From Stegostoma tigrinum (Eukaryota): a stretch of DNA of 64,000 nt. Position 1 is the stretch's first letter; the number at the start of each line of letters is the position of its first letter. The notes beneath the pieces were generated by a model that made no database searches, was not told where the DNA came from, and worked only from the letters and a program-made list of their open reading frames with translations. Location: assembly GCF_030684315.1 (NCBI RefSeq), contig NC_081392.1, positions 9,159,113 to 9,223,112 on the forward strand. Direction: 5' to 3'. A program made the translations under genes and the position numbers. Below are positions 1-61,037 of the stretch, piece after piece.

Positions 1-148
1 TGGGATGCGGTGGGGGAAGGGGAGATTTTGAAACTTGTGAAGTTCACATTGATACCATTAGGCTGCAGGGTTCCCAAGCGGAACATGAGTTGCTGTTCCT
101 GCAACCTTCGGGTGGCATCATTGTGGCACTGCAGGAGGTCCATGATGG
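1..148 (-). mobile_element. Penelope-like element fragment (GIY-YIG C-terminal region), inverted relative to the copy at 150-835
   Basis: Near reverse complement of ~254-402; truncated by the window edge. Confidence 0.75.
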
Positions 149-149
149 C

Positions 150-835
150 CAGAGGACCGCTTTGCAGAACACCTCCGCTCGGTTCGCAACAAACAACTGC
201 ACCTCCCAGTCGCAAACCATTTCCACTCCCCCCTCCCATTCTTTAGATGACATGTCCATCACGGGCCTCCTGCAGTGCCACAATGATTCCACCCGAAGGT
301 TGCAGGAATGGCAACTCATATTCCACTTGGGAACCCTGCAGCCCAATGGTATCAATGTGGACTTCACCAGCTTTAAAATCTCCCCTTCCCCCACCGCATC
401 CCAAAACCAGCCCAGTTCGTCCCCTCCCCCCACTGCACCACACAACCAGCCCAGCTCTTCCTCTCCACCCACTGCATCCCAAAACCAGTCCAACCTGTCC
501 CTGCCTCCCTAACCTGTTCTTCCTCTCACCCATCCCTTCCTCCCACCCCAAGCCGCACCTCCATCTCCTACCTACTGACCTCATCCCACCTCCTTGACCT
601 GTCCGTCCTCCCTGGACTGACCTATCCCCTCCCTACCTCCCCACCTATACTCTCCTCTCCACCTATCTTCTTTTCTCTCCATCTTCGGTCCGCCTCCCCC
701 TCTCTCCCTATTTATTCCAGAACCCTCACCCCATCCCCCTCTCTGATGAAGGGTCTAGGCCCGAAACGTCAGCTTTTGTGCTCCTGAGATGCTGCTGGGC
801 CTGCTGTGTTCATGCAGCCTCACATTTTATTATCT
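150..835 (+). mobile_element. Penelope-like element 3' portion: GIY-YIG endonuclease tail, pyrimidine-rich 3' region, hammerhead motif, TTATCT end
   Basis: Translation HSLDDMSITGLLQCHNDSTRRLQEWQLIFHLGTLQPNGINVDF resembles the C-terminus of PLE GIY-YIG domains. Near-identical copies lie at 39519-40115 and 48567-49000. Confidence 0.75.
741..772 (+). ncRNA. Minimal type I hammerhead ribozyme motif (PLE-associated)
   Basis: ct-CTGATGA-a-GGGTctagGCCC-GAAAC-GTC-ag: core CUGAUGA, stem II, GAAA, very short stem III, GUC cleavage triplet. Confidence 0.7.
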
Positions 836-1339
836 AGGATACAGCAGAGGTAAGTCTCAGAATGAAGTTCCCTCTAGTGTGTGCATCAAACATTCCCAGC
901 TCAGGTGAGGCATGATATTAGAAACCCGGTCCAGTTCCCAGACAAGCTCTTGCATAGCTGATTGAAATATCAATTGCTTGCTTTAGTCAAGATTACTGAA
1001 CAGCTGGAGATCGTCCACAGACTGCTAACCAGACAAGGCAATTTATGCAGGAAAACCCCATGTTTAAGTTTCTCCCCTGCCACTGTTTCATTGAAATCCC
1101 ACTTCAATTAGCAGCAACGCACACCATTGACTTTTCAGGAGTATAAACATCAAGAGTGGTGTGGAAGGAGGCACTAAATAGTGTTGTGTTACTTCAGTCA
1201 GCAGAGACAAACACCAACAGTGTGTAAACCATTGCAATGCAGATGAAAAAACAAACTGGTCTGTGGATAATACCTCACAGAGTAACATTCTGACCCCAAG
1301 GGGTTCACTCACTTCCTAACTAATCCAACTGGCTGGAAA

Positions 1340-4036
1340 CTTACTGCCTGGTCAATACAGGACTGAAGGTGTTGTGTCTGAATGCATGCAGTTTACAAAA
1401 TAAGGTAAATGAGCTTGTGGTTCAGATTGAAATTGGCAGGCACAATGTGGTGGGCATCATGGAGACGTGGCTGCAAGAGGATCCGGACTGGGAGCTACAT
1501 ATCCGAGGATATGCATCCTAGCGAAAAGACAGGCGGGTGGGCAGAGGGAGTGGGGTTTCCTTGTTAGTAAGAAATGAAATTAAATCAATAGCAAGAAATG
1601 AAGTGGGGTCAGATGATGGAGAATCTGTGTGGGTATAGTTGAGGAATCGCAAAGGTAAAAAACAATTTTGGGAGTTGTCAGGATTCGGGGCCCAAGATAC
1701 AACAGGATCTAGAAAAGGCGTGTAAGAAAGGCAAGGGTATAGTGATCCTCGTGGGGAGTTTCAATATGCAAGTGGACGAGGAAAATCAGGTTGGTAGTGG
1801 ATTGCAAGAAAAGGAATTTGTGGCATGTCTACAAAATGGCCTTTTCGAGCAGCCTGTCGTGGAACCCACTGGAGAACAGGCAATTCTGAATTCAGTAGTT
1901 GGCTGGAAGAACACAGCAAGCCAAGTAGCATCTGGAGTCAAAGGAAAAGTCAGTACTGAAGAAGGGTAATACTCAAAATGTTGACTCCTCCCTTCCTCCA
2001 GATGCTGCCTGGTATCAGAGATAATGGGAACTGCAGATGCTGGAGAATCCAAGATAACAAAGTGTGAAGCTGGATGAACACAGCAGGACAAGCAGCATCT
2101 CAGGAGCACAAAAGCTGACGTTTCGGGCCTAGACCCTTCATCAGAGAGGGGGATGGGGAGAGGGTTCTGGAATAAATAGGGAGAGAGGGGGAGGTGGACC
2201 GAAGATGGAGAGAAAAGGTAAGAGAGTTGCAGTGGGAGAGAGATTCCCTGAGGTTGGTCCGGAGGGAGGAGGGTAACTTGTTCAGGTTAGGCATCCCTGG
2301 AAGGCGTGCTGTGTTCTTCAAGCCTCCAGTTGTCTTCCTTGGATTCCACTATCTGTGGTGTTGTCTCTAATTCTGGATTTAAGCGTTGTGCAATGAGGCA
2401 GACTTGGTCAGGGGGGGCTCAACATAAAGGAGGCAATGACCATAACAGGATAAGTTAGAAAACGAGAAGGTGGAATCAGATGTAATGACATTACAGTTGA
2501 ATAAAAGCAACTACAGAGGCATGAGGGAGGAGCTGACCAGAATTGACTGGGAGAGGAGCCTGACAGGAAGGACAATGAAACAGCAATGGCAGGGGTTTCT
2601 GGGAGAAATTCAGGAGACACAGCAAAAATTCATCCCTAGGAAAAGGAAGCATACTAAAGGTAAGATGAGGCAACCATGGCTGACAAGGGATGTCAGGGAC
2701 AGCCTAAAAGCAAAAGAGAAAGCATATGATGTGGTGAAGGGCAGCAGGAAGAACAACAAAAAATAAGGAGGGAGAAGATTAAATATGAGAGTAAGCCAGT
2801 CAGTAATATAAAAGAGTGCAAGGGTTTCTTTAGATACATAGAAGTGCAAAAGAGAGTCAAATGTGGACATTGGGCTGCTGGAGAAGTGGTCATGGGAAAC
2901 AGAAAAATAGCAGAGAAACTGAACAAGTACTTTAGGTCCATCTTCACGGTGGAAGACATGAGTAATATCCCAAAAATTCGAGGCAGACATAGTGGCCGTC
3001 GCCAAGGAGAAAGTGCTAGAAAAACTTAGGTCTGAAGGTGGATATATCACCTGGGCCAGATGGACAACACCCCAGACATATGAAGGAGAAATAATGGAGG
3101 AACTGGTGGTGATCTTTCAGGAAACACTGGAGTCAAGGAGGATCCCAGAGGACTGGAAAAATCACTAATGTAATCCCCTTATTTAGAAAGAGACTAAGGC
3201 AAAAGGTGGGAAATTACAGGCCAATTGTCCTGACTTCGATCATTGCTTAAGATTTTGGAGTTCATGAGATTTCCGAATACTTGGAAGTCCTCAGGAAAAT
3301 AGGGCCAAGTCAGCATGGTTTCATGGAGGGGAGATCTTGCCTTGACAAATCTGTTGGAATTCTTTGAGGAGTTAATAACCAGGTTAGACCAATGAGAACC
3401 AACAGATGTTACCAACGTGGACTTCAAGAAGGCCTTTGACAAAGTGCCACACAGGAAGGCCTATGGTGTTAGAGGCAAGGTACTAGCATGGATACAAGAT
3501 TGGCAGAAAACAGAGTGGGGATTAAAGGGTCCTTCTGTAGTCAGACCACATTTGGAGCAATTTTGGGCTTGGAGCAGGTTCAGGGGAGGGTCACAAGAAC
3601 GATCCCAGAAATGAAAGGCTTAACATATGTGGAATGTTTGAGGATTCTGGGCCTATATTCGGTGGAATTTAGAAGAATGAGGGGGACATCTAATTGAATC
3701 TTGACAGAATACTGAATGGCCTGGGCAGAGTGGACATTGGGAAGATATTCCCACTTGCAGGAGAGACTACCACTAGAGGGTGCAGCCTTTGAGTAAAGGG
3801 AAGACCGTTTAGAATGGAGATAAGGACCAACCTCCCCAGCCTTAAAGTGGTGAATCTATGGAATTCATTTCTACAGAAGGCTGTGGGGTCATTGAGTATA
3901 TTTAAGGCAGAGATAGTCCTTAATTGTCAAGAGGATCAAGGGTTGCGGGTATAAAGCAGGAGAATGGGGTTGAGAAACTTATCCTCTATGATCGAATGGC
4001 AGAACAGACTTTATGTGCGGAATGGTCTAATTGCTG
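1340..4036 (+). mobile_element. Degenerate CR1 LINE ORF2 (APE endonuclease to RT), interrupted by nested short PLE insertions at ~1896-2370
   Basis: Fragments LCLNACSLQNKVNEL..METWLQ, ILVGSFN, NYRP, DFKKAFDKVPH and VRPHLEQ, with stops and frameshifts. Confidence 0.85.
2016..2303 (-). mobile_element. Short Penelope-derived element with hammerhead motif (2115-2144)
   Basis: Begins AGAGATAATGGGAACTGCAGATGCTGG and contains GACGTTTCGGGCCTAGACCCTTCATCAG. Confidence 0.8.
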
Positions 4037-5369: not shown

Positions 5370-5390
5370 TGTGTTATTTCAGTAAAGTTT

Positions 5391-5437
5391 GAAAGCTCCA
5401 GGTGCAATGTCACGGAGACTCTGGGTGAAGAGCTTTC
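5391..5437 (-). promoter_or_regulatory. U1A polyadenylation inhibition element (PIE) in SNRPA 3'UTR
   Basis: GAAAGC-UCUUCAC-CCAG-A-GUC-UCCGU-GAC-AUUGCAC-CUGG-A-GCUUUC: three stems and two 7+1 asymmetric loops, including the canonical AUUGCAC. Confidence 0.9.
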
Positions 5438-5733
5438 TTACACAGTGTGATTAAGCCAAACTGTTGCTTGCCGTAGCCAGTCAGACACGTTCACTCAAAA
5501 ATGTTGCCAATCAGGGCCAGCCAAATCCAAAGTAATACCATTAAGTGGAGAACTAGAATTCATCCTTTTCCTGGAGTCAGGAGAAGGCCATAATTTGCTT
5601 TTTGACATTATTAAAAAAAAGTGAATTATTTTAAGTCGATGGACCCAGGAATAGGGCAAGGGGAGGATCCAACACCTGGATATGAACAGTGATCCAATAG
5701 GCAGGGCAAAGCTGATGAGTCTCCTCACTTAAC

Positions 5734-5742
5734 ACTTACCTG
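5734..5742 (-). promoter_or_regulatory. Perfect U1 snRNA-complementary site (CAGGUAAGU) in SNRPA 3'UTR
   Basis: 9/9 match to the 5' splice-site consensus, ~115 nt after the stop codon. Confidence 0.65.
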
Positions 5743-5855
5743 AAGCATCAGAACTTTAAAAATCCAATACAGGCCAGTTCCCCCACAATTTAGAAAATAA
5801 AACAACAGCTTTTGAAAATAAAGCTGGAATTAACCAGTTCAATCATCCTGACCCC

Positions 5856-6015
5856 TCATTTCTTTGCAAAGGAGATTTTCATTGCATTCGACTGTGTGAT
5901 CTTGAACCCCTGGAGTGCGTCACGTGCTGCCCCAGCCTGGACCTCATTATCAAATTCCACAAAGGCAATGTCATGGCGACCAGGTACCAAGCGGACTTCC
6001 TTAAATCCAGGGAAC
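5856..6015 (-). CDS. SNRPA: U1 snRNP A, last coding exon (RRM2)
   Basis: [52 protein letters not shown]; tttttag acceptor. Confidence 0.97.
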
Positions 6016-7251
6016 CTAAAAAAATGCAGAGAAAGAATGATTAGCACACCAGGCTGTGTGTTGGGTTGGCAGGGTAGGGGAAGAGAAGTGTGGACCCTCC
6101 TTACTATGTTGGGAGGACTGATTGTCACAGCTAGCAACTCTCCAAGGCTCATTTGACAGCATCTTCCAAACCAGTGATCGCTGCCATCTAGAAGGACAAG
6201 GGTAGCAGATACGTGACAATACCATTCCCTCAGAACCGCCCCACCAAACCACACACCATCCTGATTTGAAACTATAATCACTGGCCCTGCACTGTCACTG
6301 GGTCATAATACTGGAAATCCCTCCTAACAGTACTGTGGGGGTATTTCCACCACGTGCACTGCAGCAGTTCAAGGTAACAGCTCATCACCTTCAAGGCAAA
6401 TTGGAGGCAGATAATAGATAGTTGGTAGGTAGGGTTGGTCAGTAACTGCCACATCCCATGAAGTTATTAAGGGTTTTATGCTGTACATGAGACAGAGTGG
6501 TAGCCTCTTTCCTGGGTTCTTCACCTACCATCTCTTGATATAAGGCTACTAAGGTTCATTGTTTAACCTTATTTTTCCAGGTTTGGGCAACATGAAACTG
6601 TTCCGAGAAGCCAGACAGCTTACACTGAGACTCATCATCCTTCCAAACAGAACCAGCGGAGTGGGATAACTCTACAGTTCACTCAGGGAATGAGATCGCA
6701 ACAGAAAGGTCTCTCCACCCAAATCAGAGTGTGGAGAACAAAAGGTTCTGATATAATTTAAAAACTTCATTCATTCATGAGCATTGCCAGCTGGGGGAGT
6801 TTTTACTGCCTGTCATCTGTCACCTGGTGAGCTCTTTCCTTGAACTGCTGCAGCCAGATCCACAATGTTGTGTGTGAGAGAGACAGCATGCGAGAGAGAC
6901 AGAGTCTGGAGGAGGAAAAATTCCAGGATTTCAAAACAGCGACATTGTTGTATGAGAAGTTAGCATGGTGAATGCCTTAGAGGGGAACTTGCAGGTGGTC
7001 GCTATTCCAATATTCCTCTTGCCCTTAAACTTCTAGGTGGAAGTGGTTGAGGGTTTGGAAAGTTACATTTAAGGATCTTTGGTGAATTTCTGCAGTGCAT
7101 CTCGTAAATAGTACACACTGCTGCTACTGACCATCAGTGGTGGATAGAGTGAAGTGGTGCTTTGTCATAGTCATAGTCATACAGCATGGAAACAGGTCCT
7201 TCAGTCCAACAAGTCCACACTAACCATGTCACCAAACTAACCTATTCCCAC

Positions 7252-7625
7252 CTGCCTGCTTTCTATTTATCAGTTTAGGTTTCCTTGGGTTGGTGATGCC
7301 ATTTCCTGTGTTGGTGGTGTCATTTCCTGTTCTTTTTCTCAGAAGGTGGTAGATGGGCTCCAAATCAATGTGTTTGTTGATGGAGTTCCAGTTGGAATGC
7401 TATGCTTCTAGGAAATGTCATCAACAAAGGAAATGACATCACCAACCCAAGGAAACCTAAACACAAATAGAAAGCAGGACATAACACAAGCGCTTCATCG
7501 GAGGCTCACTGATGATGTTACCTAGAATGGTGACAAAACGTCTGAAAACAAACCTTCCAGCTCAGCAAGCAAACTTACATCCAGAACCTCAACCTGAGCT
7601 ACAAATCTTCTCAAAACTCGCTAAC
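7252..7625. mobile_element. Penelope-like fragment, head-to-head inverted pair with decayed hammerhead motif (7507-7544)
   Basis: ~7255-7306 is the reverse complement of ~7429-7478. CTGATGA-T-GTTACC-TAGAAT-GGTGAC-AAAAC-GTC follows. Confidence 0.6.
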
Positions 7626-8162
7626 ACCTGTCTCCTACTGTAAATCTAACTTTGTATCCAATTGGCATGCTCACCCCAAATCCCATGATCTAAATTTACT
7701 AAATATTCTACCATGTGGAACCTAATCAAAGGCTTTACTGAAGTCCAGTTCTGGATATTACAAACCTTCTGGAGTGTTGTTGGAGCTGCACCCATTCAGG
7801 GAAATGGGCAGTATTCCATCACACTACTAACTTGTGCCTTGTAGATGTTTGACAGGCTTTGGGGAATCAGAAGGTAGGATTCTTAGCCTCTGAGCTACAC
7901 TTGTAGCACTGTGTTTACATGGTGAGTCCAGTTGAGTTTCTGATCAATGACAACTCTAAGAATGTTGATAATTGGGGATTCAGTGATGGTAATACCATTG
8001 AATGTCAAGGGGCATCGGTTTGATTGCCTTTCGTGGGAGATGGTTGTTGCCTGGCATTTGTGTGACATTACCGCTGCTTAATCCCACCACCTAGCAGCAT
8101 CTTTACTTAGTATCAACCCCCACTCCAAAATCAGAGTCATGATTCCCATTCCCCCATACTTA

Positions 8163-8306
<144 letters not shown>

Positions 8307-8884
8307 TCACACAGCCACTTCACAAACATCTACCAACCCCTCCTGCCACTCAGTACCAGCAGTATACACATATCCCCTGGTCCCAGAGAGGGGCACCACA
8401 TGCAATTCTCTCTATACCCAATACAGAGTAAGTCATACACTACACATTAAAAGGGATCGAGGGGTATGGAGAGAATGCAACTTTACATGGAGATGCAATT
8501 AGCCATGATCTAACTGAACGGTGGAACACGTTTGAGGGACAAATGGCCAAGCTCCCCTCACCAAGCTCCTAACTGTCATGCTCTAAAAGCAACATCCAAT
8601 TCAGTTCAGCACCTGGCATACATCAGATTGCGAAGAGATACTGGCAGCAACATTAAACCACAGCCCAAGCATTTCACCTAACTCACCAATAACAAACCCC
8701 CTAAAGGTCAGAGGTTCTTGGGCAACAAGGATACCCACGTACGAAGCACTTTTTTCTTCAAGTATTCAAGGAAGCTAGCAAGCTCTCATCCAACTGATAA
8801 CAACTGACTCAGCTGATTACCCTTGGGATGGGTACAACAACAATTCTATCATCATTTCACCTCCCATACCAACTGAAGACTTAC

Positions 8885-9058
8885 CGTCTGAGCAGGTGGT
8901 GGCATCTGTCCAGCCATCATCTGGCCAGGAGGAATGGAACCCGGTGGCATCTGTCCAGGGGCCATTCCAGGTGGTGGCATCATCCCCGGTGGGGGCATGT
9001 AGTGAGGTTGCCCTGGCATTGGCATCATCCGTGGGGCCTGGCTCATCATGGGCATGCC
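8885..9058 (-). CDS. SNRPA: U1 snRNP A coding exon 4 (Pro/Met-rich linker)
   Basis: [36 protein letters not shown]...; gtag/gtaagt. Confidence 0.95.
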
Positions 9059-10194
9059 CTACGACAAACAAACACCAAAATAAAACACACAACGGTTCAG
9101 GAGACAAGTCAATGAATTTTACACAACGGCCAAGAACCAGTCATTTCAGGCCATGCCTATTGCACAGAATTCTCTCAAACAAAAACAAAATAAAGAGTGT
9201 GAAGGAAAGCTTAGCAAATATCTCCTTGCTGTCTTAAGTGGGAAACTAATGTAAACTGTATCCTGTAAGTCCCTAGTTCTAATCTCTTCCACAAGGAGAA
9301 ACAGCCTTTCAGAATCCAACCTGCCAAGTCCCTCAGGGTCTGTGTTTCAATAAGATTGTTAAATCTTGAAAATGCCTTCAAAGCACATCAACACCCACCA
9401 ACAATACAGGAGTCAACGGGCAAGACTGAAAGTAGAGTCAAAGGGGAGTTTTTCAAAGTTTGGGGTCAAAGAGTAAGGACGCCATGGGAATCAGATTTGA
9501 AAGGAAAAGCTTTATTTTTTAAAATGCCACTCTCCTTCATTCTCCCTAGAGCAAATACATATTTCTATTGACAGTTGCTGACGCAGGGGATGGGAGGAAC
9601 CACAATGCCAAAAACGGAAGCAGGGCCAAATGAAAACCTGCCAAATTAATGTTGGGATTAACTTGTGGCTTCTCCTATAGAGATGGGAATACCAACCCCA
9701 AAAAAACTCAACAGCAGAACTAAAGAATAGTCACTAATAAGACAAATTTAATTAATTAATTGTAAAGATTAAGCAAAGACTGTTGTCATGGAAGGACACA
9801 AACGAACCCCAAAAATCTAGTTGAAAGTGTTCCTCACAACCAATTTTCAACATATCAGTTGGCTCAAGTAAATTTCATTTAGAAAGAGTGCATGTACAGA
9901 AAGTGGACAGGACACCAAAAACCAGCTGACCTCAAAGCCCTCAGTTAGTTGGTTGAGCACAACAGTAAACGAAGACACCACATAAATTAAAATCAGTAGG
10001 AAGGAAACTCAGCAGTGTTCATCGCCAGACTTCCTTCTGCTGTACAGCTGACTGAGATAAAGGTCACAGATCTGACCCATCATCTGCTACTTCCCCTTCC
10101 ATTAACAAGGAAATGAAGTAGCATTTCCTCACAGTTCACACACACACACACGTGCAGGTCTTTACATAACCAGTTTAGATCCAGCTACACTTAC

Positions 10195-10362
10195 CGATAC
10201 AGGAGGGGGGACAGCGTTAGCTGTTGGGGGTGCTGAAGCCTTTTTGTTGCCAGAAGGCTCAGGCGCCTTGACCTTCCTCTTCTCCTTCTTCCGGTCACGT
10301 TCCACATAGGTGCCCTTCATCTTCGCAATAATATCAGAATCAGTCTTTGCATATTGAATCCG
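10195..10362 (-). CDS. SNRPA: U1 snRNP A coding exon 3
   Basis: [30 protein letters not shown]...; acag/gtaagt. Confidence 0.97.
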
Positions 10363-10943
10363 CTGTGGGCAATGGGAAACTGTTAAACCACTGAAACTCC
10401 ATGGGTTATATCCACAAGGGTTACCTCACAACAAGTGTAGAAAATAATAGAGTCTGCATTGGCACAAAGAAACTTTTAAGCTGCTTCTCAACCAAAAGAA
10501 AAATCCTTCACACAAAAGACTAAGTTTTTCAGCAGTACAGAATTTGAATACTGCAGAAGATAGAAACCGGATGCTAAAGATTTTCATCTTGAATTCCTCA
10601 GCTTAAATGTCAGGCCGCCAAATTTCACACGTAACACAATTTTGGTAAAGGAATAAAGGACGCAGGGACAAATCAAATCATCATCCTTTTCTCCTGCAAA
10701 ATAACTTGCTGTGATAGTTTGAAATTTAGAATGAAATACATCTGATGAAAAGATGTGCAGGTGTGCAGAAGGAGACCAGCTCTGGCTGGACAATCTTTTA
10801 CTTTGATCAGTAAACTCTCATGGAGCACAAATAAAGCTAGGCTGTTAGGTCTATTTTGTACAGAAAATTCATTATGCTCCACTTAGACACAGCCTAACTG
10901 CAATGGAAAACAGATCAGTTGACAAGCACAAAAGCTAATATCA

Positions 10944-11201
<258 letters not shown>

Positions 11202-12359
11202 TCAGTCACAAGTACAATTGCGACCAGACTTGAACGTGAACTTGAAACCACAATTCAAGTTCATGAATGTCCAGTAAATGCGGTTGATTCATAATGTCAT
11301 ATTGTGCAAAGCCCAGTCAACCTCTTACAAAAACAATACAGAAGATGCAAACAAAGCTTTGCAAGAATGACACCAGAACCATGGTTATAGTTACAAAACA
11401 AAGTTATGCTTCATTTATACAGGGCATTGGAGACACCATATTTGGAGAGTGGGTTTTGTGGGTAAGCAAAGTGGAGTTATCAGATCACCCATGATCTTAT
11501 TGAAAGAATGAACAGACTTTAGGGGTTGAGTGGTTAACTCACACTAAATGATATGTTTGTGTTAGAGATGACTGGCAGACTGGGGCTCTTTTTTCTACAA
11601 AGAGGCTAGAGCCAGGGAGGGGTCATCTTTAGCACTATGGTCTTTAACATTTGGGACATATTCAACAAAATAGACAACTGCCTGATTTGAAGGGACTCAA
11701 CGGCAACTGCTGCAAATCCAGGTACAGTTACAACACAGAGTCATAGAGATGTACAGCATGGCAGCAGATCCTTTGGTCCAACTCGTCCGCGCTGACTAGA
11801 TACCCTAAATTAATCTAGACCCATTTCCCTGTAAACCGTTCTTGTTCACATACCCTTCAGGATGCCTTTTAAATGTATAAATCAAAAGGCATTTTGACAG
11901 GTACATGAATGGGAAAGGTTTAGAGGGATATTGGCCAAAAGGAGTTAGTTGGAACTAGTTCAGTTTGGGAAATTTGGGTCACATGGACGAGTTGGATCAA
12001 AGGGCCTGTTTCCATGCTGTACGACTCTATAACAGTCCTTGCATATGGCTGTTGAACACTCCGAAACAACGGGTCATACATGGTACTTATTAATAATTCC
12101 AATAAAGAAACTGGGAGAAAGTTGTTTTAAGCTATGCTTAGTCAGAACTTCCCACCGCAGGGATAGTTGAGAGAAATTTCCTTTAAGAAACTAAATAAAC
12201 ATGAGGGGATGAGGAGCAGTTTGTTAAAATTCACTCTCAGTACACACTTTGCTAACTGTGCCAGCATTTATTGTCTTAGACCCCACTAATGCTCTCGAAG
12301 TCCCCAACCCAAACATACCCGAATACACTGCTGAACCAGAACTATCCCTGAATACTTGC

Positions 12360-12432
12360 CATCTTTCTTGATCTTCTCATTCAAATTGTTGATGTAGATG
12401 GTGTGGTTTGGACGGGCCTCTTGGGTAGTCAT
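12360..12432 (-). CDS. SNRPA: U1 snRNP A coding exon 1
   Basis: gcc[27 protein letters not shown], ending at a GC donor (G|GCAAGT). Confidence 0.95.
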
Positions 12433-13639
12433 GGCTCTACTCTTGCGCTAACTAAAATTAAAACTGAGGGGGGAAATGAGCACAAGTGAAAGTCAGTCTC
12501 ATAGATGTCACTCTTCAAAAGAAATAAACCTCTCTCTAACTTCATTATGGCAAATCTCAGAGTTGAACTCAACTCAGAAATCATGAGCTCAAAATCAACA
12601 ATGGCAAGCTGTGACATTCAATAAATCTTAAAAGGTTTGATAGTCCAGACCAAGGATGATCAGCAGAATTCAACCTGTTCACTGTAGTTCAGCACCACAC
12701 TCCTTAATTGTTTTAATGGCTGCCTGAACTTCCAAAGCCTCAATGCAGCAGCAACTTCCAGAATTGGAAGTCAATGTCTTGATCAGCAAAACAACACTAA
12801 TCACTGTGGTTGTATACACACTTTGAGAGGAAATGCTGCTCAGCATGCTAGCATTACATGTGGTTACTGTGCAGAACCAAAGCTGACAAAAGGTGGCTGC
12901 CAAACGTATCCATTCTCATCCGCTAACACCGCTCCCAGATTCAAAGGACTGCAGCCCAATGTGTGGCTATAAGTGGTAGAAATGTAAGTCACATCCCTAA
13001 ATTGCTCTAAAGCAACTCAAGCACACCCCATCCTAGATCCCAAAGTTAAGAGTACGTATTGTCCTTCCTTTGCCCGTTACCCAGAGACAGGATTACTAAA
13101 CAACCCCTTCTCTCACATCCTTCATCCAAGCTCACCCGCTCTGAGAAGCAAGACAGCCCCTTCTCTCCCCCACCTCTGAGGGAAAGGTCAGCCTACCCCC
13201 CTCTCCTTCTGAGAGCTCACACAGCCCCCTCTGTGCACGAACATAAAAAACAGGCGGAGGCCATTCGGCCCTTCAAGCCTGCTGCACAATTCTCTACAAC
13301 CACATCTGATCATCAAACTCTACAACCTGACCCTACCTTTCCCTCCCCATGTCCTTTGATCCCTTTAGCCCAAATCACCAAATCCAACTCCTTCTTGAAA
13401 CGTAGTATTTTGGCCTGTTTTCTGTACCACAGAAAACCACAGTAGTAGCAGTCTGCGGGTGGAGGAATTTCTCATCATCTCAGTCTCCTCTGGCATACGC
13501 TGTATCCTTAGACGCCCACCCATCAACTCAACCTCTCTCACATTCCTTTAGCCACTCAGCCCTCCCTTTTGCCTTACCACCCTTCACCCTTTACCCCTGG
13601 CCTACTCTCTCCCTCTCAGCCAACCCTCCGCCCTCTCTT

Positions 13640-34720: not shown

Positions 34721-35196
34721 GCAGCTCCAACAAGTTATTTTGATTGCAAATTCCCTCCCTTCCATTTCATTTATGGCAGCATTTGTTACCCATCTCCAAC
34801 TGCCCTTGAACCAAGTGGTTTGCTGGGCCATTTCAGAAGGCAGTTTGGAAACAACCATGTTGTTGTGGGTCTGGAGTCACATTTCAATCAAACCAGGTGA
34901 CTAATTTTCTTCCCTAAATGACAATGAACCAGATGAGTTTTTAATCACAGATAACAAGGTGTGGAGCTGGATGAACACAACAGGCCAAGCAGCATCTCAG
35001 GAGCACAAAAGCTGACGTTTCAGGTCTAGACCCTTCACCACTGTTGGTTATATAGTAGCCTTTAACTCTGTCCTTCCTTTTAATTCTGAATTTGTTGTTG
35101 AATTCAAATTTCACGATCTTCCATCTTAGGAATTAAACTCATTCAGCAAAAACATGAGCCTGGTGTTCTAGATTAGTAGCCCAATGACATTGCTAC

Positions 35197-35261: not shown

Positions 35262-35619
35262 CTAATTTTTCTATCGTTATTAATTGCTTTGTCAGTTTTT
35301 GGCAATCCTTGCAACTAGTCCAGTTCAGATTCTGATTAGTGTTATCTGATTCCATTTTCTCCACCAATCTGAGGATCCAGCACATCCAACTTCACCATGA
35401 GTCTTTGAAAACTTGCACAAAAAGTTATCCTATTCTTCAACACTTCAAACCATGCACCAAGGGGAGCCCCTGTAGCCTGGTCCAGGAAAGGATATCTGTG
35501 ATATCCCAAGGCTGAGCAGGATGGGTTGTCTCTGAGATCACGCACTCCCCACCTCTCAAATTACCCACTTCACCCCCCCCCCACCATCTCCACTCTCCTC
35601 ACCCCCACTGGTTGTGGGG

Positions 35620-35970
35620 GAAGTCTCTGGGATCACCCACACCCACCTTGGTGGGGGGTCTCTGGGATCACCCACCCCCCCCTTGGTGGGGGGGGGGTGG
35701 TCTCTGGGATCACCCACCCCCCCCTTGGTGGGGGGGGGGGTGGTCTCTGGGATCACCCACCCCCCCCTTGGTGGGGGGGGGTGGTCTCTGGGATCACCCA
35801 CTCCCCCCTTGGTGGGGGGGGGGTGGTCTCTGGGATCACCCACTCCCCCCTTGGTGGGGGGGGGTGGTCTCTGGGATCACCCACTCCCCCCTTGGTGGGG
35901 GGGGGCGTGTTGTCTCTGGGATCACCCACTCCCCCCTTGGTGGGGGGGTGGTCTCTGGGATCACCCATTT
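35620..35970. repeat. ~38-42 bp G/C-run minisatellite (about 9 units) in YIF1B intron 1
   Basis: Repeated GTCTCTGGGATCACCCAC(C/T)CnTTGGTGnTG. Confidence 0.9.
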
Positions 35971-36127
35971 CCCTTCTCAATCGGGGGGGGGGAGGGGGGT
36001 GGGGGAAGCAGCATTGACTGCGTCCCTTTCCGAATGCCAATTTTCTACAAATAGAGTAAAAAAAATTTCTTTGCCGTCGAGTGAATAACCGATTTATAGA
36101 GAAACTGAAGCCACGTACGTAACTTAC

Positions 36128-37030: not shown

Positions 37031-37870
37031 ATGGAAAGGGACTATTGGAACCATTGTGGCTGTACCAGCCATTAGCACTTAGAGTCATGTGGAATGGAAA
37101 AACATCTTTCAGGCCTTCAGTAGGTGGATTATAGGGGAATGGGTCTGGGTGGGATGCTGTGAAAGTTGATGTGGACTTGTTGGGCCAAAGGGTCTGTTTC
37201 CACACTATAGGGATTCTATAATTTCTAACAACTTCCTCTGGCAGCTCCTTCCGTAGACGCACTACCCTCTACGTGAAAAAGTCACACTTTCAGTCCCTTT
37301 AAAATCTTGCCCCTCTCACCTTAAACCAATGCCCTCTAGTTTCGGACTCCCCTACCCTGGGGAGAAACATCTTCACTATTCACCCTATCCGTGTCCTTCA
37401 TGATTTTATAAACATCTACAAGGTCATCCCTCAGCCTCCGATGCTCCAGGAAAAATAGCCGCAGCCTATTCAGCCCCTCTGTATAGCTCAAACCCTCCAA
37501 CCCTCTCAAATTTCACAACATCCTTCCTCTAGCAGGGACGCTCGACAATTCTTGCCTCTCCAAGAGTAGATCAATTCTGTCCCCTCAGAATATTTTCCAT
37601 ACATTTCCCTACCTCTGATGTTAGACTCACTGGCCTGTAGTTTCCTAATTTATCCCTACAACTCCTCTTGAATAATGGTACCACTTAGTTGACTTTTCCA
37701 TTCAAAATTATCCTTAGAGCATCTGTAACCTCTTCTTTGCTTTTGATAGCAGCTATCTCCTCTAGGTCTGGGGTTTTATCTAGTTTTAAGCTGCTAAAAC
37801 TGGTAAGACCACTTCCCACTCAATGCTAATTTGTCCAAGCACATCACAAACTTGCTTTGAATTATATACC

Positions 37871-38118
37871 AGAGATAAGGGGAACTGCAGATGCTGGAGA
37901 ATCCGAGATAACAAAGTGTGGGGCTGGATGAACACAGCAGGACAAGCAGCATCTCAGGAGCACAAAAGCTGACGTTTCAGGCCTAGACCCTTCATCAGAG
38001 AGGGTCTAGGCCCGAAACGTCAGCTTTTGTGCTCCTAAGATGCTGCTTGTCCTGCTGTGTTCATCCAGCCCCACACTTTGTTATCTTGGATTCTCCAGCA
38101 TCTGCAGTTCCCATTATC
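37871..38118. mobile_element. Palindromic short PLE insertion with junction at the hammerhead motif
   Basis: Near-perfect ~120 bp inverted arms joined at CCCTTCATCAGAGAGGGTCTAGG; no clear TSD. Confidence 0.85.
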
Positions 38119-38164
38119 GCTGACTGGAGTAACCTGCTAGGTTTAAGAGTCGCATGCTGAGGGT

Positions 38165-39350
38165 CTAACCAAAGTAATAAGCAATCCAAAACTGTACAAA
38201 CTAATTAAAGTAGAGAGATCATAACAATTTATCAAGCCGATGGTGCCAAAACAGAACGGTAAGGATGGTTTTACAGATATAGAACAGTGTGGTGGGGTCA
38301 CATGCATTACCACATGGACGCAAGATCACAGTTGAGGCCATGTTTATGGGTACAGAGCTTGATTATCAGCCTCTGCTCGGTGACTCTGCATTGTTGTGTA
38401 TCTCCAAGACTGCCTCAGAGAATGTTTACCCGAAGATCCAAGCCCGAATGTCCTTGACCTCTGAAGTGTTCCCCCGGTGGGAGGGAACATTCCAGTCTGA
38501 CGATTGTTGCGCGATGTCCATTCGTCCGTTGTCATAGCATCTGCATGGCCTCACCAATACACCATGCCTCAGGGCATCCTTGCCTGCAGCGTATGAGAGA
38601 GACAACATTGGCTGAGTCACATGAGTCGCGCGGTGGGTGATGTTCCCATGTGTGATGGTCATGTCCATTGTCGAAGATCTGTCATGTCTCGCTGAGCTTG
38701 CCATGGCAGGGTTATGTAGTGTTGTGGTCGATGTTGTTCTGAAGGCTGTGAATGACGGTCTGTTTAAGGTTTGGCGGTTGTTTGAATGCGGGAAGTGGAG
38801 TTGTAGAGAAGATCTTGGCGAGATGCTCATTATCATTGATGACATGTTGCAGGCTGCAAAGAACATGGTGTAGATTTTCTGCTCCAGGGAAGTACTGGAC
38901 GACAAAGGGGACTCTATTGGTCGTACACCGTGTCTGTCTTCTGAGGAGGTCATTGCAGTTTCTCGCTGTGGCAAGTCAGAACTGGTGATCGATGAGTTGA
39001 GCATCGCACCCCTTCCTTATGAGGGTGTCCTTCAAAATCTTTAAGTGCCCGTTATGTTCCTCCTCATCCGAGCAGATCCTGTGTATGTGTAGGGCTTGTC
39101 CATTGGGGTTGGCTTCTTTAATATGTTTAGGATGGAAGTTAGGGAACAGCAGCATCATGAGGTTATCCATGGACATGTGGTCGAGTGAGGTACTGAGGTA
39201 TCTGTCCCTGATGGAGATGCGTGTGTCCAAAATTAGATTGATTCTGAAGAGTAATTCACGGTAAATCTGATGGTGGGATGAAACTTGTTGATATCACTAT
39301 ATAGTTGTTTCAGTGATTCCTCACTATGAGTCCAATTGAAGAAATTAATG
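38165..39350 (-). mobile_element. Penelope-like retroelement fragment (RT thumb plus GIY-YIG endonuclease), degenerate
   Basis: FPNFHPKHIKEANPNGQALHIHRICSDEEE, and a CDSANVVSLIRC..C..WCIGE..NGHR..EHF-type GIY-YIG region. Confidence 0.8.
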
Positions 39351-39518: not shown

Positions 39519-40115
39519 GGCAACTGCACCTCCCAGTCGCGAACCATTTCCATTCCCCCTCCCATTCTTTAGATGACATGTCCATCCTGGGCCTCCTGCA
39601 GGGCCACAATGAGGCCACCCGAAGTTTGCAGGAACAGCAACTCATATTCCGCTTGGGAATCCTGCAGCCCAATGGTATCAATGTGGACTTCACCAGCTTC
39701 AAAATCTCCCCTTCCCCCACCACATCCCTAAACCAGCCCAGTTCATCCCCTCCCCTCACTGCACCACACAACCAGCCCAGCCTGTCTCTGCCTCCCTAAC
39801 CTGTTCTTCCTCTCACCTATCCCTTCCTCCCACCTCAAGCTGCACCTCCATCTCCTACCTATTAACCTCATCCCACCTCCTTGACCTGTCCGTCTTCCCT
39901 GGACTGACCTATCCCCTCCCTACCTCCCCACCTATACTCCCCTCTCCACCTATCTTCTCCTCTAACCATCTTCGATCTGCCTCCCCCTCTCTCCCTATTT
40001 ATTCCAGAACCCTCTCCCCATCCCCCTTTTTCTGATGAAGAGTCTAGGCCCGAAATGTCAGCTTTTGTGCTTCTGAGATGCTGCTGTGTTTATCCAGCCC
40101 CACACCTTGTTATCT
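39519..40115 (+). mobile_element. Penelope-like 3' portion (same family as 150-835)
   Basis: MSILGLLQGHNEATRSLQEQQLIFRLGILQPNGINVDF, with a hammerhead-like motif at ~40033-40061. Confidence 0.8.
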
Positions 40116-50110: not shown

Positions 50111-52243
50111 GTTAGATTATGCAAGATTTAGGGAGCATAGGATGGGGAAGGAAACTGCAGGGGATGGGCACATTAGAAATGTGGAGCTTATTCAAGGAAA
50201 ATCTCCTGTGTGTCCTAGATAGGTATGTACCTGTCAGGCAGGGAGGAAGCTGTAGAGTGCGTGAGCCATGGTTTACGAAGCAAGTGGAATCTCTGGTCAA
50301 GAGGAAGAAGAAGGCTTATGTTAGGATGAGATGTGAAGGCTCAGTTAGGGCGCTTGAGGGCTATGAGGTAGCCAGGACAGACCTAAAGAGAGAGGTCAGA
50401 AGAGCCAGGAGACATGAGAAGTTGTTGGCGGATAGGATCAGGGTAAACCCTAAGGCTTTCAATTGGTATTTAAGGAATAAAAGAATGACGCAAGTAAGAT
50501 TAGGCCCAATCAAGGATAGTAGTGGTAAGTTGTGTGTGGAGTCAGATGAGATAGGGGAAGCGCTAAATGAATATTTTTCAACAGTATTCACTCTAGAAAA
50601 CGACAATGTTGTCGAGGAGAATACTGAGATACAGGCTACTAGACTAGTTGGGATTGAGGTTCACAAGGAAGAGGTATTAGAAATCCTACAGAGGGTGAAG
50701 ATAGATAAGTCCCCTGAGCCGGATGGGATTTATCCTCGGATCCTCTGGGAAGCCAGGGAGGAGATTGCCAAGCCTTTGACATTGATCTTTAACTCTTCAT
50801 TGTCTACAGGAATAGTGCCAGACAACTGGAGGATAGCAAATGTGGTTCCCCTGTTCAAGAAGGGGAGTAGAGACAACCCTGGTAATTATAGACCAGTGAG
50901 CCTTACCTCAGTTGTTGGTAAAGTGTTGGAAGAGGTTATAAGGGATAGGATTTATAATCATCTAGAAAATAATAAATTGATTAGTAATAGTCAGCACGGT
51001 TTTGTGAAGAGAAGGTCGTGCCTCACAAACCTTATTGAGTTCTTTGAGAAGGTGACCAAACAGGTAGATGAGAGTAAACCGGTTGATGTGGTGTATATGG
51101 ATTTCAGCAAGGCGTTCGATAAGGTTCCCCACAGTAGGCTTTTGTAGAAAATGTGGAGGAATGGAATTGTGGGAGATATAGCAGTTTGGATCGGAAATTG
51201 GCTTGTTGAAAGAAGACAGAGGGTAGTGGTTGATGGGAAATGTTCATCCTGGAGACCAGTTACTAGTGGTGTACCGCAAGGGTCGGTGTTGGGTCCACTG
51301 CTGTTTGTAATTTTTATAAATGACCTGGATGGGGGCGTAGAAGGATGGGTTAGTAAATTTGCAGATGACACTAAGGTTGGTGGAGTTGTGGATACTGACG
51401 AAGGATGCTGTCGGTTGCAGAGAGACATAGATAAGCTGCAGAGCTGGGCTGAGAGGTGGCAAATGGAGTTTAATGCAGACAAGTGTGAGGTGATACACTT
51501 TGGTAGAAGTAACCAGAAGGCAAAGTACAGGGCTAATGGTAAGATTCTTAGTAGTGTAGGTGAGCAGAGACATCTCGGTGTCCATGTACACAGATCCTTG
51601 AAAGTTGCCACCCAGGTTGACAGGGCTGTTAAGAAGGCACACAGTGTTTTAGCTTTTATTAATAGAGGAATCGAGTTCCGGAACCAAGAGGTTATGGTGA
51701 AGCTGTACAAAACTCTGGTGCGGCCGCACTTGGAGTATTGTGTACAGTTCTGGTCACCGCATTATAAGAAGGATGTGGAAGCTTTGGAAAGGGTGCAGAG
51801 GAGATTTACTAGGATGTTGCCTGGTATGGAGGGAAGATCTTACGAGGAAAGGCTGAGGAACTTGAGGCTGTTTTCATTAGAGAGAAGAAGGTTGAGAGGT
51901 GACTTAATTGAAACATATAAAATAATCAGATAGGGTGGATAGGGAGAACCTTTTTCCTAGGATGGTGACAGCAAGCACGAGGGGGCATAGCTTGAAATTG
52001 AGGGGTGAAAGACATAGGACAGATGTCAGAGGTAGTTTCTTTACTCAGAGGGTAGTAAGGGAATGGAACGCTTTGCCTGCAACAGTAGTAGATTCGCCAA
52101 CTTTAAGTACATTTAAGTCGTCATTGGATAAGCATATGGACGTACATGGAATAGTGTAGGTTAGATGGGCTTGAGATCGGTATGAAGGCTGGCACAACAT
52201 CGAGGGCCGAAGGGCCTGTACTGTGCTGTAATGTTCTATGTTC
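50111..52243 (+). mobile_element. Young 5'-truncated CR1 LINE (ORF2 RT), inserted into a SINE
   Basis: ORFs 50119-51147 and 51151-51933 are separated by one TAG. Motifs NYRPVSLTS, QHGF, DFSKAFDKVPH, GVPQGSVLGP and FADDTK; GTTCTATGTTCT tail. Confidence 0.95.
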
Positions 52244-52789: not shown

Positions 52790-52916
52790 GCTGACTCTCA
52801 CTGGGATACAGTTCCTGAAGGGGCTGAGTCTCTCTGGGATACAGTTCCTGAAGGGGCTGACTCTCGCTGGGATACAGTTCCTGAAGGGGCTGACTCTCTC
52901 TGGGATACAGCTCCTG
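52790..52916. repeat. 33 bp tandem repeat (~3.8 units)
   Basis: GCTGACTCTCACTGGGATACAGTTCCTGAAGGG repeated; the same unit occurs at 62991-63037. Confidence 0.9.
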
Positions 52917-53576
52917 TATGTGCTCTCTTACTGGGGCACAGTTTTATCTCACAAATTCAACCACAGAATGTTTACAACCCCGAAGGTGGCCATTTGGCCC
53001 ATCCTATCTGTGCTGGCTGTCCAAAACAGCAATCCCCTTGGTGCCATTCCCCTACACTTTCCCCAGAACGTCACACACTCTTCCTTTTCAGACGATCTAA
53101 TTTCATATTGTAAGTGTTGTATTGGAACTGCCTGCACTAAATCTCTGAGCTGAGTTCCAGATGACAAGCATTCTCTCACTGTGCGTGCAGTTGGCTTGTG
53201 GTGCAGCTTAATGCCAACAACGTGGGGTCAATTCCTGCACCAGCTGAGACTACCATGGTGCCATTCGGCCCGTATCCCTCTAAACTGTTCCTATGCATGC
53301 ACCTGTCCATATGTTTTTTAAATGTTGCACTGTTCCCACCTCTACCGCTTCCTCTGGCAGCTTGCTTCAGATATTTCCCACCCTTTGCGTGAAAAAGTTG
53401 TCTGGCGCGTCCCTTTTATATCTTTCCTCTCTCACCGTAAAGCTGTGCTGTCTGGATTTGGACTCCTCCACTCTGGGGAAAAGACTTTGCCATCTCCCCC
53501 TGTCTATGAATTAGTCTCCTTCTCAATCTCTCCCCTCGCCTGAGATATGGTGGCCCTCAGGTTAAACCTCTACCAG

Positions 53577-53803
53577 GATAATAAAATGTGAGGCTGGATG
53601 AACACAGCAGGCCAAGCAGCATCTCAGGAGCACAAAAGCTGACGTTTCGGGCCTAGACCCTTCATCAGACCCTTCTCTGATGAAGGGTCTAGGCCCGAAA
53701 CGTCAGCTTTTGTGCTCCTGAGATGCTGCTTGGCCTGCTGTGTTCATCCAGCCTCACATTTTATTATCTTGGAATCTCCAGCATCTGCAGTTCCCATTAT
53801 CTC
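53577..53803. mobile_element. Palindromic short PLE insertion with intact hammerhead motifs on both strands
   Basis: HHR on - at 53639-53668 and on + at 53677-53706; exact 14 bp TSD TAAACCTCTACCAG at 53563-53576 and 53804-53817. Confidence 0.92.
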
Positions 53804-54054
53804 TAAACCTCTACCAGTTGCCTTTCTCTTTCTGAATCTCTCCACCAACGAAAACTCTTTCTCCATCTGCACTCAGTTTGAATATCCTTTATTATCGCAT
53901 GCATTCAGTATTAACTACAGTGAAAAGTGTGTGTCATCGCTTGTATATAAGCACCATTCACAGAATAAAATAAGCAAAAACATAACTTAAAGAGCGTCCA
54001 ACTTTACCTTCTCTGCTGCTACAGCATACCACGGCCAGGGTCCCTCACCGGACT

Positions 54055-54734: not shown

Positions 54735-55453
54735 ATTGAGTACAGGAGTTGGGAGGGTCATGTTGCGGCTGTACAGGACATTGGTTCAGAGATAATGGGA
54801 ACTGCAGATGCTGGAGAATCCAAGATAATAAAATGTGAGGCTGGATGAACACAGCAGGCCAAGCAGCATCTCAGGAGCACAAAAGCTGACGTTTCGGGCC
54901 TAGACCCTTCATCACAGAGCCACGTTTTGGAATGCTGTGTTCGGTTCTGGTCTCCCTGCTATAGGAACAACATTGCGAAACTTGAAAGGGTTCAGAAACT
55001 CTTACCAGGGTTGGAGGATTTGAGCTCCAGGAAGAGGCTGTATAGGCTGGGGCTGTTTTCCCCTGGAGCGTCGGTGGCTTCGGGCTGACCTTATAGAGGC
55101 TTATAAAATCATGGGGGGCATGGATAGCCAGGGTCTATTCCCCAGGGTAGGGGAATCCAAAGCCACAAAGTGTAAGTTTAAGGTGAGAGGGGAAAGATTC
55201 AAAAGGGACCTGAGGGATAACCTTTTCACGCAGAGGATGGTGCATGCATGGAATGAGCTGCCAGAGGAAGTGGTGGAGGCTGCTACAGTTACGACATTTA
55301 AAAGGCATCTGGATGGGTATATGTGTACGAAGGGTTTAGAGGGATATGGGCCAAATGCTGGCAAATGGGACTGGATTAATTTAGGATATCTGGTGGCGTG
55401 GATGAGTCGGACCAAGGGGTCTGTTTCCATGATATACACCTCCATGACTCTGT
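54735..55453 (+). mobile_element. CR1 3' fragment containing a short PLE insertion (54788-54914)
   Basis: GLFPRVGESK..FTQRMVHAWNELPEEVVEA and a CR1 tail. Confidence 0.8.
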
Positions 55454-56122: not shown

Positions 56123-56476
56123 GTCAGTGATGAGCAGTCAGTGTTTGGAGATCAATTTATGTTGATTGATTGGGAGGGGTGGTGGTGGAGGTTGAGTTTT
56201 GCAAAAAGGGATTTGAGTGAAAACTCTTTTCTACAGCAAAGTGATTGTAATATGGAACACACTGCCCAATAGAGACAGATTCAACCATGGTTTCAAGAGG
56301 AAATTGGATGAGCACCCCATCAAGGGAAAAATGAGGGAGTTGGACTAACTACATTTCTTTTACAGACAGGCAGTTTGAACCTGATGGAACAAATAGTCTC
56401 CATCCACATTGTATGATTCAATAATTATAACTAATCCCCACTGCCATTGAGAAAGTGGTATGGAGTTATTTACTTC

Positions 56477-56745
56477 AGAGATAATAGGAACTGCAGATGC
56501 TGGAGAATCCAAGATAACAAAGTGTGAAGCTGGATGAACACAACAGGCCAAGCAGCATCTCAGGAGCACAAAAGCTGACGTTTCGGGCCTAGACCCGTCA
56601 TCGGAGAGGGGGATGGGGAGAGGGTTCTGGAATAAATAGGAAGAGAGGGGGAGGTGGACTGAAGATGGATAGAGGAGAAGATAGGTGAGAGGGGTGTATC
56701 AGTGGGGAGGTAGGGAGGGGATAGGTCAGTTCGGGGAGGACAGTT
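56477..56745 (-). mobile_element. Short PLE with hammerhead-like motif
   Basis: Family consensus AGAGATAATAGGAACTGCAG...GACGTTTCGGGCCTAGACCC. Confidence 0.8.
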
Positions 56746-58789: not shown

Positions 58790-58863
58790 TAGTGATTTAA
58801 GGACATGTTTTCATTTAATTCACTCATTCATTTAACCTTACGCTAATTCTTGTTGTTTTGCAG

Positions 58864-59032: not shown

Positions 59033-60756
59033 GTAGTGGGAAGCAATGCCATGCATCATGTTGGACTTCATTTCAGAGGGAATAGAGTATGAAAATAGAG
59101 ACGTCGTGCTCAGATATACACTACATTGACCACACCACAGCTGGAATACTGTGAATAGGTTTGGTCCAATTATTGAATTGTAAAATCACTACAGAGTGAA
59201 AGCAAACCATTCAGCCCATCAAGTTCACACCAACCCTCCGAAGAGCATCCCATCCAGACCCACAGCCCCACTCCTCTATAATCCTGCAATTCCCATGGCT
59301 AACCCACCCAGCCTGCACATCCCTAGGTACGATGGGTATAGCCAATCCACTGTAACCTGCACATCTTTGGACTGTGGAAGGAAACCCATGCATACACAGC
59401 GAGAATGTGCAAACTCCGCACAGACAGTCACCTGAGGCCGGAATCAAACCTGTGAGGCAGCCGTGATAACCACTGATCCAAAGGCAGATAATGTAGCACT
59501 GGAGACGGTCCAGAGAAGGTTCACCAGATTGAATGGTAGACAGGTTGAGTAAGTTTGGCTTGTGCTTATTGGAGTTTACAAGAATGGATTTAGAAAGAAC
59601 CTTACTGAAATATACAAGATTTTCAGGAGACTTGGCAGAGTAAATATGAATCAGTTGTATCCCCTTGTAGGAGAGTCTAAGACCAGAGGACATCATCTCT
59701 GAATAATGGGGTGCCCATTTAAAACAGAGATGCTGAGGAATTTCTTCTCTCAGAGGATGGTGAATCTGTGGAATTCTTTACTGCAGAGGGCTGTTGAGAC
59801 TGGGTGGTAAGTGTGTTCAAGATTGTGATAGATTTGTAATTAATAAGGGAGTCAATGGTTGTGGGGAAAGGTGTGAAATTTGAGTTGAGGTTAAGGCTGA
59901 TGAGTTGTGGGCTGGTTGAATGACAGAGCACATCCAATGGACCAAATCCAGGACTACATTTGGTCCAATGCCTTATGGTCTTGAAAGAAACACTTTCTGT
60001 TCAGCACAATAGTGTGCATTTGGGCAGCACCTTTTGTATGCTAACTCACCGCCAGGCTCTTTAGGAGAAATGTTGTAAATCAGATTTTGACACTCATTCC
60101 CATAAGGCAGTGGATGGCCTAAAGTTTGGTAGGAGTGGTAAGTTCGAAGGAAGGAGAGCTTCGGGATAGAATTCCAGAGCTTGGGGCTTGGGCAAATTAA
60201 AACATGGGCTCTAATGGAGTGATTAAAACTGGGAATTCTCAAGAGGCCGAAATTAGAGCAGTGCTGATATCTCAGAGGGTCTGGGTTTGGAGGGGTTTCC
60301 AGACATAGGGAAGCAGTGCAGTTTGAAAATAAAGACGAGAACATTAAAATACTTGCTTTGCATTTCTGAGAGCCCAGTAGGTCAGCAAGGACAGGCATGA
60401 TAGGACGTTGGGATGCAACTATGGACAGGAGTGGAAGAATTTTGGATGCCAGTTAGGACCGTTGCAGTCATTCCTTTCCATGACTCATTTCCTCTAACGT
60501 GTACAAGCAGCATTAGATATATAAGGCAAGGGATTTTGCGAATTATAATTCAGACTATACAGAGCTCAGTACCAGAGACAAGTCAGCAGGATCCTTAAGT
60601 TAACAAATAAGAAAGTAGATATTGCAAAAAAAAACAAAAATGCAAACATTATTGATAAAATGTATAAATATCAACTGATTGTGATAATTTATGTACGCAA
60701 ACTCAAAGACACACAACTTCCTCCAAGCCTGGAAAAAGAATAGTAATTTAAAAGCA

Positions 60757-61037
60757 GAGATAATGGGAACTGCAGATGCTGGAGAATCCGAGATAACAAA
60801 GTGTGAAGCTGGATGAACACAGCAGGCCAAGCGACATCTTAGGAGCACAAAAGCTGACGTTTTGGGCCTAGACCCTTCATCAGAAAAGGGGATGGGGACA
60901 GGGTTCTGAAATAAATAGGGAGAGAGGGGGAGGCAGATCGAAGGTGGATAGAGGAGAAGATAGTTGGAGAGGGGACAGGCAAGTTAAAGGGGCGGGATGG
61001 AGCCTGTAGAGTATAGGTGGGGAGGTAGGAAGGGGCA
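60757..61037 (-). mobile_element. Short PLE copy
   Basis: Family consensus with GACGTTTTGGGCCTAGACCCTTCATCAG. Confidence 0.8.

Follow-up and report, generated by a model that had tools for sequence, protein, structure and literature searches.

A minimal hammerhead motif in the pLTRs of a high-copy Penelope-like retroelement of Stegostoma tigrinum

The hammerhead motif and its carrier element

Minimal hammerheads (min-HHRs) have been described in the pLTRs of metazoan Penelope-like retroelements (PLEs), and the Neptune PLEs of fishes are named in the same study (Cervera and De la Pena 2014, PMC4209133). In the Anolis carolinensis element Poseidon (PAc; Frangieh et al. 2024, PMC11167929), cleavage is reported to be assisted by protein, hammerhead mutations had no effect on insertion in vitro and no RNA reads were found to end at the cut site. 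An internal promoter has been reported in the pLTR of D. virilis (PMC2377424). According to Craig et al. 2021 (PMC8557442), a CX2-5CxxC linker is common to Neptune and Nematis elements, and Naiad PLEs spread without hammerheads. A literature search returned no study of PLE hammerheads in sharks; the supplements of PMC4209133 and of a 2026 preprint (10.64898/2026.07.22.740005) may list shark motifs.

The motif analysed here belongs to this published kind of minimal PLE hammerhead. An earlier note had recognised it at nine places in the window (the whole 64-kb stretch of DNA that was analysed), and a search for the 30-mer with at most 3 mismatches recovered nine copies, at 743(+), 2115(-), 37969(-), 40032(+), 53639(-), 53677(+), 54886(-), 56575(-) and 60854(-); none of 100 shuffled windows gave any match at this threshold. 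The anatomy described in that note, consisting of CUGAUGA, one extra A, GAAA, a palindromic ACGU and a 2-bp stem I, holds as well. In the minimal type I hammerhead at 741..772 on the forward strand, the core (743-749) and the extra A precede a stem II of 4 bp that is capped by a CUAG loop (751-762), followed by GAAA and the palindromic ACGU, which has no loop 3. C741 and U742 pair with A771 and G772 to form stem I, and the predicted cut lies between positions 770 and 771.

The exact 30-mer is present in four of the nine copies, and the sole change in 37969(-), C11.1>U, gives a G.U pair in stem II. The full core of minimal type I hammerheads (CUGANGA...GAAA...UH) is retained in five copies; the motif also features an extra nucleotide between 9 and 10.1, the pair G10.1-C11.1 and a palindromic 15.2-16.2, and lacks helix III. 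Catalytic residues are gone in 54886 (C3>G) and 60854 (G12>A), and the status of the core is doubtful in 40032 (G10.2>A and C15.2>U) and 56575 (U4>C, and A>C at the extra nucleotide).

The repeat carrying the motif is represented in the window by 20 copies of at least 60 nt. A 5'-truncated copy of the putative Neptune-type PLE at 155..839(+), which matches the ORF of locus L063 at 90-100% in tblastn comparisons, comprises a remnant of the GIY-YIG C-terminus (155-443), a pyrimidine-rich 3' region, the hammerhead and a short-form tail. The inverted arm of the same insertion, an endonuclease fragment detected as an inverted repeat and by tblastn, lies at 1..151(-) and runs off the window edge. 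Reverse-strand copies include a truncated one with a long tail at 2017..2240 (exact motif at 2115-2144), a short one at 54786..54919, the motif of which has lost C3, and truncated ones at 56474..56741 (motif with U4>C) and 60756..60975 (motif without G12, antisense between two phospholipase A2-like exons). The truncated copy at 39521..40115(+) retains an endonuclease remnant and a motif with two changes (40032-40061). The insert at 37870..38123 is an inverted pair featuring a core-intact motif at 37969-37998(-) and a plus arm without the core. At 53573..53804, the exact motifs at 53639(-) and 53677(+) belong to a single inverted-pair insertion, in which a short and a long arm are flanked by a 14-bp target-site duplication. 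A non-LTR retrozyme, in which short units that each contain a hammerhead form a tandem array, was considered and rejected, as the copies in the window are dispersed or inverted.

Other repeats were also noted. A second hammerhead family (7501-7550(+); 6-bp stem II, A2.1-U1.1) is represented by a copy lacking G12, located antisense in an SNRPA intron, and another PLE family, only distantly related (24% protein identity), maps at 38313-39233(-). Minisatellites at 35590-35990, 52785-52950, 54075-54520 and 61400-61955 have units of ~42, 33, 43 and 22 bp, respectively. Locus L011 offers a natural cis-dimer candidate: its two exact motifs (G000:C1:2722793 and 2722852) form a direct tandem with a spacing of 59 bp.

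The association with PLEs suggested in the earlier note was confirmed, as the motif is found in both pLTRs of an ORF-bearing RT and GIY-YIG element (L012 and L056-L075). L012 contains a whole unit, in which motifs 3,528 bp apart flank the RT-endonuclease ORF; the element unit is ~3.6 kb long. Stop-free frames of 1,082-1,121 codons were found in 9 of 20 loci selected by best 5'-region match. Since eight intact copies are 98.5-99.8% identical to each other (28 pairs), the family is young. The ORF protein, 1,073 aa long from the first ATG, features a YIDD motif, a CX4CX2C linker between RT and EN that conforms to the CX2-5CxxC pattern of the Neptune clade, and, at its C-terminus, a GIY-YIG domain, the match of which to PF01541 (E=7.5e-4) is under the curated cut-off. 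Homologues of the protein carry PF00078, and the best named one is a protein of the bamboo shark Chiloscyllium punctatum (77% identity), a match indicative of a shark. The single ORF combining RT and C-terminal GIY-YIG, the partial tandem or inverted copies and the tail of 30-40 bp are those of EN+ Penelope-like elements. Both partial tandems and inverted truncated copies were found, L066 being a full head-to-tail tandem, and in 14 of the 20 ORF-bearing loci the upstream pLTR continues beyond the motif on its 5' side by more than 100 nt. The linker motif and the host ranges of Neptune and Nematis suggest that the element is probably of the Neptune type.

A 27-codon upstream ORF located 3' of the cut site (L063:2882-3050) terminates at a TGA that shares its reading frame with the long ORF. 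Among 29 copies (L026-L055), all 29 conserve this TGA and 28 conserve the frame. A branch-point and acceptor-like stretch directly precedes the ATG of the long ORF. Re-initiation, read-through or a 5' intron are candidate explanations for the conserved TGA and the acceptor-like stretch.

The high copy number claimed from the window extends to the 3.2-Gb genome, which contains 90,316 exact motifs (45,079 and 45,237 on the two strands), against none in the reversed-sequence control. When all families are considered, 192,856 core-intact motifs are found genome-wide, compared with 1,576 in the reversed control.

Covariation and predicted folding

Covariation was analysed in 206 core motifs collected from 1.4 Mb without a pairing filter; the reversed control yielded 5 motifs. 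In stem I, the pair 2.1-1.1 is UA in 167 motifs, AU in 11 and CG in 6, and the pair 2.2-1.2 is CG in 86, UA in 53 and UG in 36. Neither count was attained in 1,000 shuffles. Four of the five positions of stem II are likewise beyond the shuffles, the pair 10.1-11.1 being weaker (9/1,000), and the extra nucleotide is A in 182 of the 206 motifs. In a set of 22 representatives, 89% of cells are paired versus 16-42% in slid structures, and 7 of 10 pairs changed on both sides, though the set was hand-picked, stem II rows were pre-filtered for pairing and counts are not independent of descent. The earlier note had held that a stem II that does not covary across subfamilies would speak against a hammerhead; because both stems I and II covary across families, as judged from shuffles and the slid-structure control, this objection fails. 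Stem I is unsupported beyond 2 bp in the main family (2.3-1.3 is paired at 0.31 versus 0.28 in shuffled data). No hammerhead occurs among the 30 hits (E<=1) of an Rfam search of the window, and the canonical Rfam features, a model match and a stable helix III, are absent. Identification of the motif as a PLE-associated minimal type I hammerhead is supported at the sequence level.

For a lone motif, the predicted fold is an inactive hairpin in which the core is trapped (-11.4 versus -3.6 kcal/mol). The hairpin has an ensemble frequency of 0.84, and its 3' arm ends at +30 (core C3 being +1). The catalytic dimer is predicted to be far weaker than inactive duplexes (-5.5 versus -38 kcal/mol). Stem II and the CUAG loop (751-762) form a near-perfect palindrome, through which two RNAs are predicted to pair as an inactive duplex. 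Self-cleavage after GUC would be plausible. Since the lone motif is predicted to fold in an inactive form and most insertions were copied from continuous RNA (see below), cleavage is likely conditional and minor. Most genomic copies are likely inert. The predicted inactive fold fits the low in vitro activity reported in PMC4209133 and the protein-assisted cleavage reported in PMC11167929.

Host genes and intronic copies

In the window, SNRPA exons (5372-12463, -) were identified by using relatives' contigs, which covered 4.5-24.5 kb. Gene models at 24.5-64 kb are based on Pfam exon hits only, and the 36-58 kb interval is incompletely annotated; they include ACTMAP (+), YIF1-family exons (-), GEMIN7 (-) and two phospholipase A2-like exons with weak family hits (58836-62688, +). 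A CIPC-family gene (L022:3877-5007) is located ~15 kb to the left of the window. A hit resembling the U1A polyadenylation inhibition element (44.5 bits, gathering 50) is found at 5370-5440(-), at the SNRPA transcript's 3' end, and suggests that SNRPA autoregulation may be conserved in sharks.

It had been proposed in the earlier note that sense-oriented intronic copies might cut host pre-mRNAs. The copies at 743 and 2115 are located past the SNRPA 3' end. The one at 60854, which lies in antisense orientation between two exons, lacks G12, and the sole likely intronic sense copy, at 34949-35040, has a broken core. No intact sense copy was placed in introns of the genes identified in the window, the 36-58 kb interval of which is incompletely annotated. 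A wider analysis covered 1.4 Mb flanked by CUB or laminin G exon hits of the same strand in seven long genes, which are presumably CSMD, neurexin and cubilin genes. Sense and antisense copies are evenly represented among exact (18 versus 21, p=0.75), intact (38 versus 37), non-intact (111 versus 124, Fisher p=0.69) and solo intact copies (6 versus 7), as they are among the LINEs used as orientation control (34 versus 34). A CR1/L2-type LINE fragment, the RT of which is split by one stop, is found in the window at 50116-51933(+) and served as the orientation control. Copy density is 27.9 per Mb in the genes versus 28.2 genome-wide, and 62 of the 75 intact copies have an opposite-strand copy able to pair with them within 4.5 kb. 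In the seven genes (1.4 Mb), neither orientation bias nor depletion was observed, which leaves the proposal unsupported; the sample is small, the genes are probably tissue-restricted and the frequent inverted pairs dilute the test, and a weak effect is possible. Efficient cutting of host pre-mRNA is not indicated. The absence of intronic bias suggests that a vertebrate tolerates many motifs because the lone copy is inactive.

Insertion ends, competing explanations and known systems

The 3' ends of 158 copies are bimodal, clustering at ~+90 to +97 and at +125 to +138, and the two ends (about +93 and +128) are ~35 nt apart. The 59 inverted pairs that we analysed comprise 41 found in the gene sample and the window and 18 at loci chosen because of their +29 starts. 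The two arms differ in length, one being short and the other long, in 55 of the 59 pairs, and target duplications of at least 12 bp (mode 14) are present in 37. Bimodal 3' ends and paired arms agree with the two RT start sites and the two-strand nicking described in PMC11167929, and the combination of a short and a long arm agrees with a tail present at one end only (PMC8557442). For 168 copies at least 88% identical, the 5' start falls at -10 to +12 in 75, at +28 to +30 in 5 and upstream of -40 in 46. Because 5' starts are mostly found outside the cut, most templates were continuous across the cut site, and many of them likely began at the first bases of the motif. From DNA ends only, we infer that transcription may start at the 5' edge of the motif.

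Genome-wide, the match stops at +29, the first base past GUC, in 3,494 copies, compared with 872 at +28 and 699 at +30. The spike is partly confounded by a 4-bp palindrome. Among 100 listed +29 rows, 60 show the AA prefix belonging to a symmetric junction at the AGCT palindrome; once palindromic-junction rows are removed, ~1,400 copies are left at +29, and the excess over 872 and 699 is no more than ~1.6-2 fold. Of 30 +29 loci that were read, at least 2 are small indels and not true 5' ends. Symmetric inverted junctions, analysed as a microhomology control, involve AGCT (+29) in 791 loci, ACGT (+24) in 80 and GGCC (+56) in 26. GGCC (+16) and CTAG (+13), counts of which are lowered somewhat by CpG decay, account for 14 and 11 loci, respectively, in the first 172 Mb, compared with 50 AGCT loci in 155 Mb. 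The simplest reading is a discrete cDNA end at +29. Pausing of the RT at the hairpin ending at +30 could be an alternative source of ends near +29, and in vivo cleavage has about even odds of being their cause. We hold it slightly less probable than its opposite that the genome records germ-line cutting by a PLE hammerhead, with a few percent of the insertions ending exactly at the cut and providing, along with the pile at the motif start and the one-short/one-long arm rule, a base-resolution map of RNA start, cut site and asymmetric twin priming. A literature search that covered most papers by their listings gave no report of insertion ends at a hammerhead cut site.

On balance, the motif is probably the minimal hammerhead in the pLTR of a young, very high-copy Neptune-type element and likely cuts the RNA of this element after GUC, though no more than occasionally and only when assisted, most copies deriving from uncut RNA and being likely inert. 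Transcription would start at the 5' edge of the motif. The RT-endonuclease would nick both target strands, with cDNA primed at two internal sites, and copying of the 5' pLTR to the RNA end would generate stubs of 100-135 bp. In a few percent of the RNAs, the hammerhead would remove the first ~30 nt, and the cDNA would run off at +29. The active fold would be a dimer formed through ACGU:ACGU and/or assembled on the element protein.

There is a smaller, yet appreciable, chance that the motif is retained for a non-cutting role, such as transcription start, protein binding or RT stop, with the +29 spike resulting from RT pausing at the hairpin and AGCT microhomology. The main 5' ends map at the motif start (75 of 168) rather than at the cut (5 of 168), the inactive hairpin ending at +30 dominates the predicted ensemble, mutants of the PAc hammerhead did not change insertion in vitro (PMC11167929), and Naiad PLEs spread without any hammerhead (PMC8557442). 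Such a role is, however, at odds with retention of the catalytic core across families with differing stems, with the fewer symmetric junctions yielded by four other 4-bp palindromes (two of which are all G-C) and with a spike only one base wide (+29 versus +28 and +30). Somewhat less probable still is the model, proposed in PMC4209133, whereby a tandem transcript is cut by each of its two hammerheads, ligation turns the unit into a circle, and RT proceeds round the circle to generate partial tandems in which the rejoined site looks uncut. The upstream pLTRs that continue past the motif in the 5' direction by more than 100 nt in 14 of 20 loci and the head-to-tail tandem L066 favour a circle, because RNA starting at the motif cannot template them. 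Read-through from tandem source loci, however, accounts for the same structures, and a circle, which has no 5' end, leaves the pile at -10 to +12 unexplained.

The remaining explanations carry far less weight. It is very improbable that host pre-mRNAs are cut by sense intronic copies at a rate that matters: tens of thousands of intact motifs must be intronic and trans-dimers are conceivable, but in the 1.4 Mb of the seven genes orientation counts are even, density is at the genome average and most intact copies (62/75) lie near an opposite-strand partner. We give almost no credence to a chance match to a hammerhead inside an abundant repeat. The lack of Rfam hammerhead hits and the very short stems would fit such a match, whereas the conserved core, the extra nucleotide, the palindromic ACGU and the compensatory changes across several families do not; the position in the pLTR is the published one, and the covariation counts already contradict chance. 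With ~90,000 identical motifs and intact ORFs in the family, insertion ends can document where RNAs ended. Should the +29 spike reflect real cleavage, it would provide indirect in vivo evidence for a weak ribozyme, and the many 99%-identical intact copies make the element directly testable.

The motif shares with the min-HHRs of PMC4209133 the type I topology, the absence of helix III, the palindromic 15.2-16.2, the single nucleotide 9/10.1 and the pair G10.1-C11.1, as well as the presence in both pLTRs, the prevalence of dispersed single copies and the existence of several families with compensatory changes. Stems II and I are 4 and 2 bp long, in contrast to 7-8 and 4-5 bp in Schistosoma; helix I of D. 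virilis is likewise 2 bp (PMC4209133). The 90,316 identical copies compare with ~9,000 motifs in Xenopus, the largest number noted from that paper, which were counted by a different search method (PMC4209133). In PAc, as here, two RT start sites 3' of the hammerhead define the tail, both target strands are nicked and extended, and uncut RNA is the main template (PMC11167929). PAc belongs, however, to a different clade, and its ORF begins in stem II (PMC11167929), whereas the first ATG of the long ORF is here ~165 nt past the core, behind the short upstream ORF. Moreover, arms nearly always use different start sites here, whereas no strand difference was found for PAc in vitro (PMC11167929). 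The GIY-YIG C-terminus, the CX2-5CxxC linker, the partial tandems, the inverted truncated copy and the tail of 30-40 bp, often present at one end only, are all common to the Neptune and Nematis EN+ PLEs of Craig et al. (PMC8557442). Non-LTR retrozymes also feature type I hammerheads derived from PLE pLTRs, and one chondrichthyan was sampled in their study (Li et al. 2026, 10.64898/2026.07.22.740005). Retrozymes form tandem arrays and are under-represented in introns (10.64898/2026.07.22.740005); in contrast, the stubs described here are dispersed, are often arranged in inverted pairs and are undepleted in the sampled introns.
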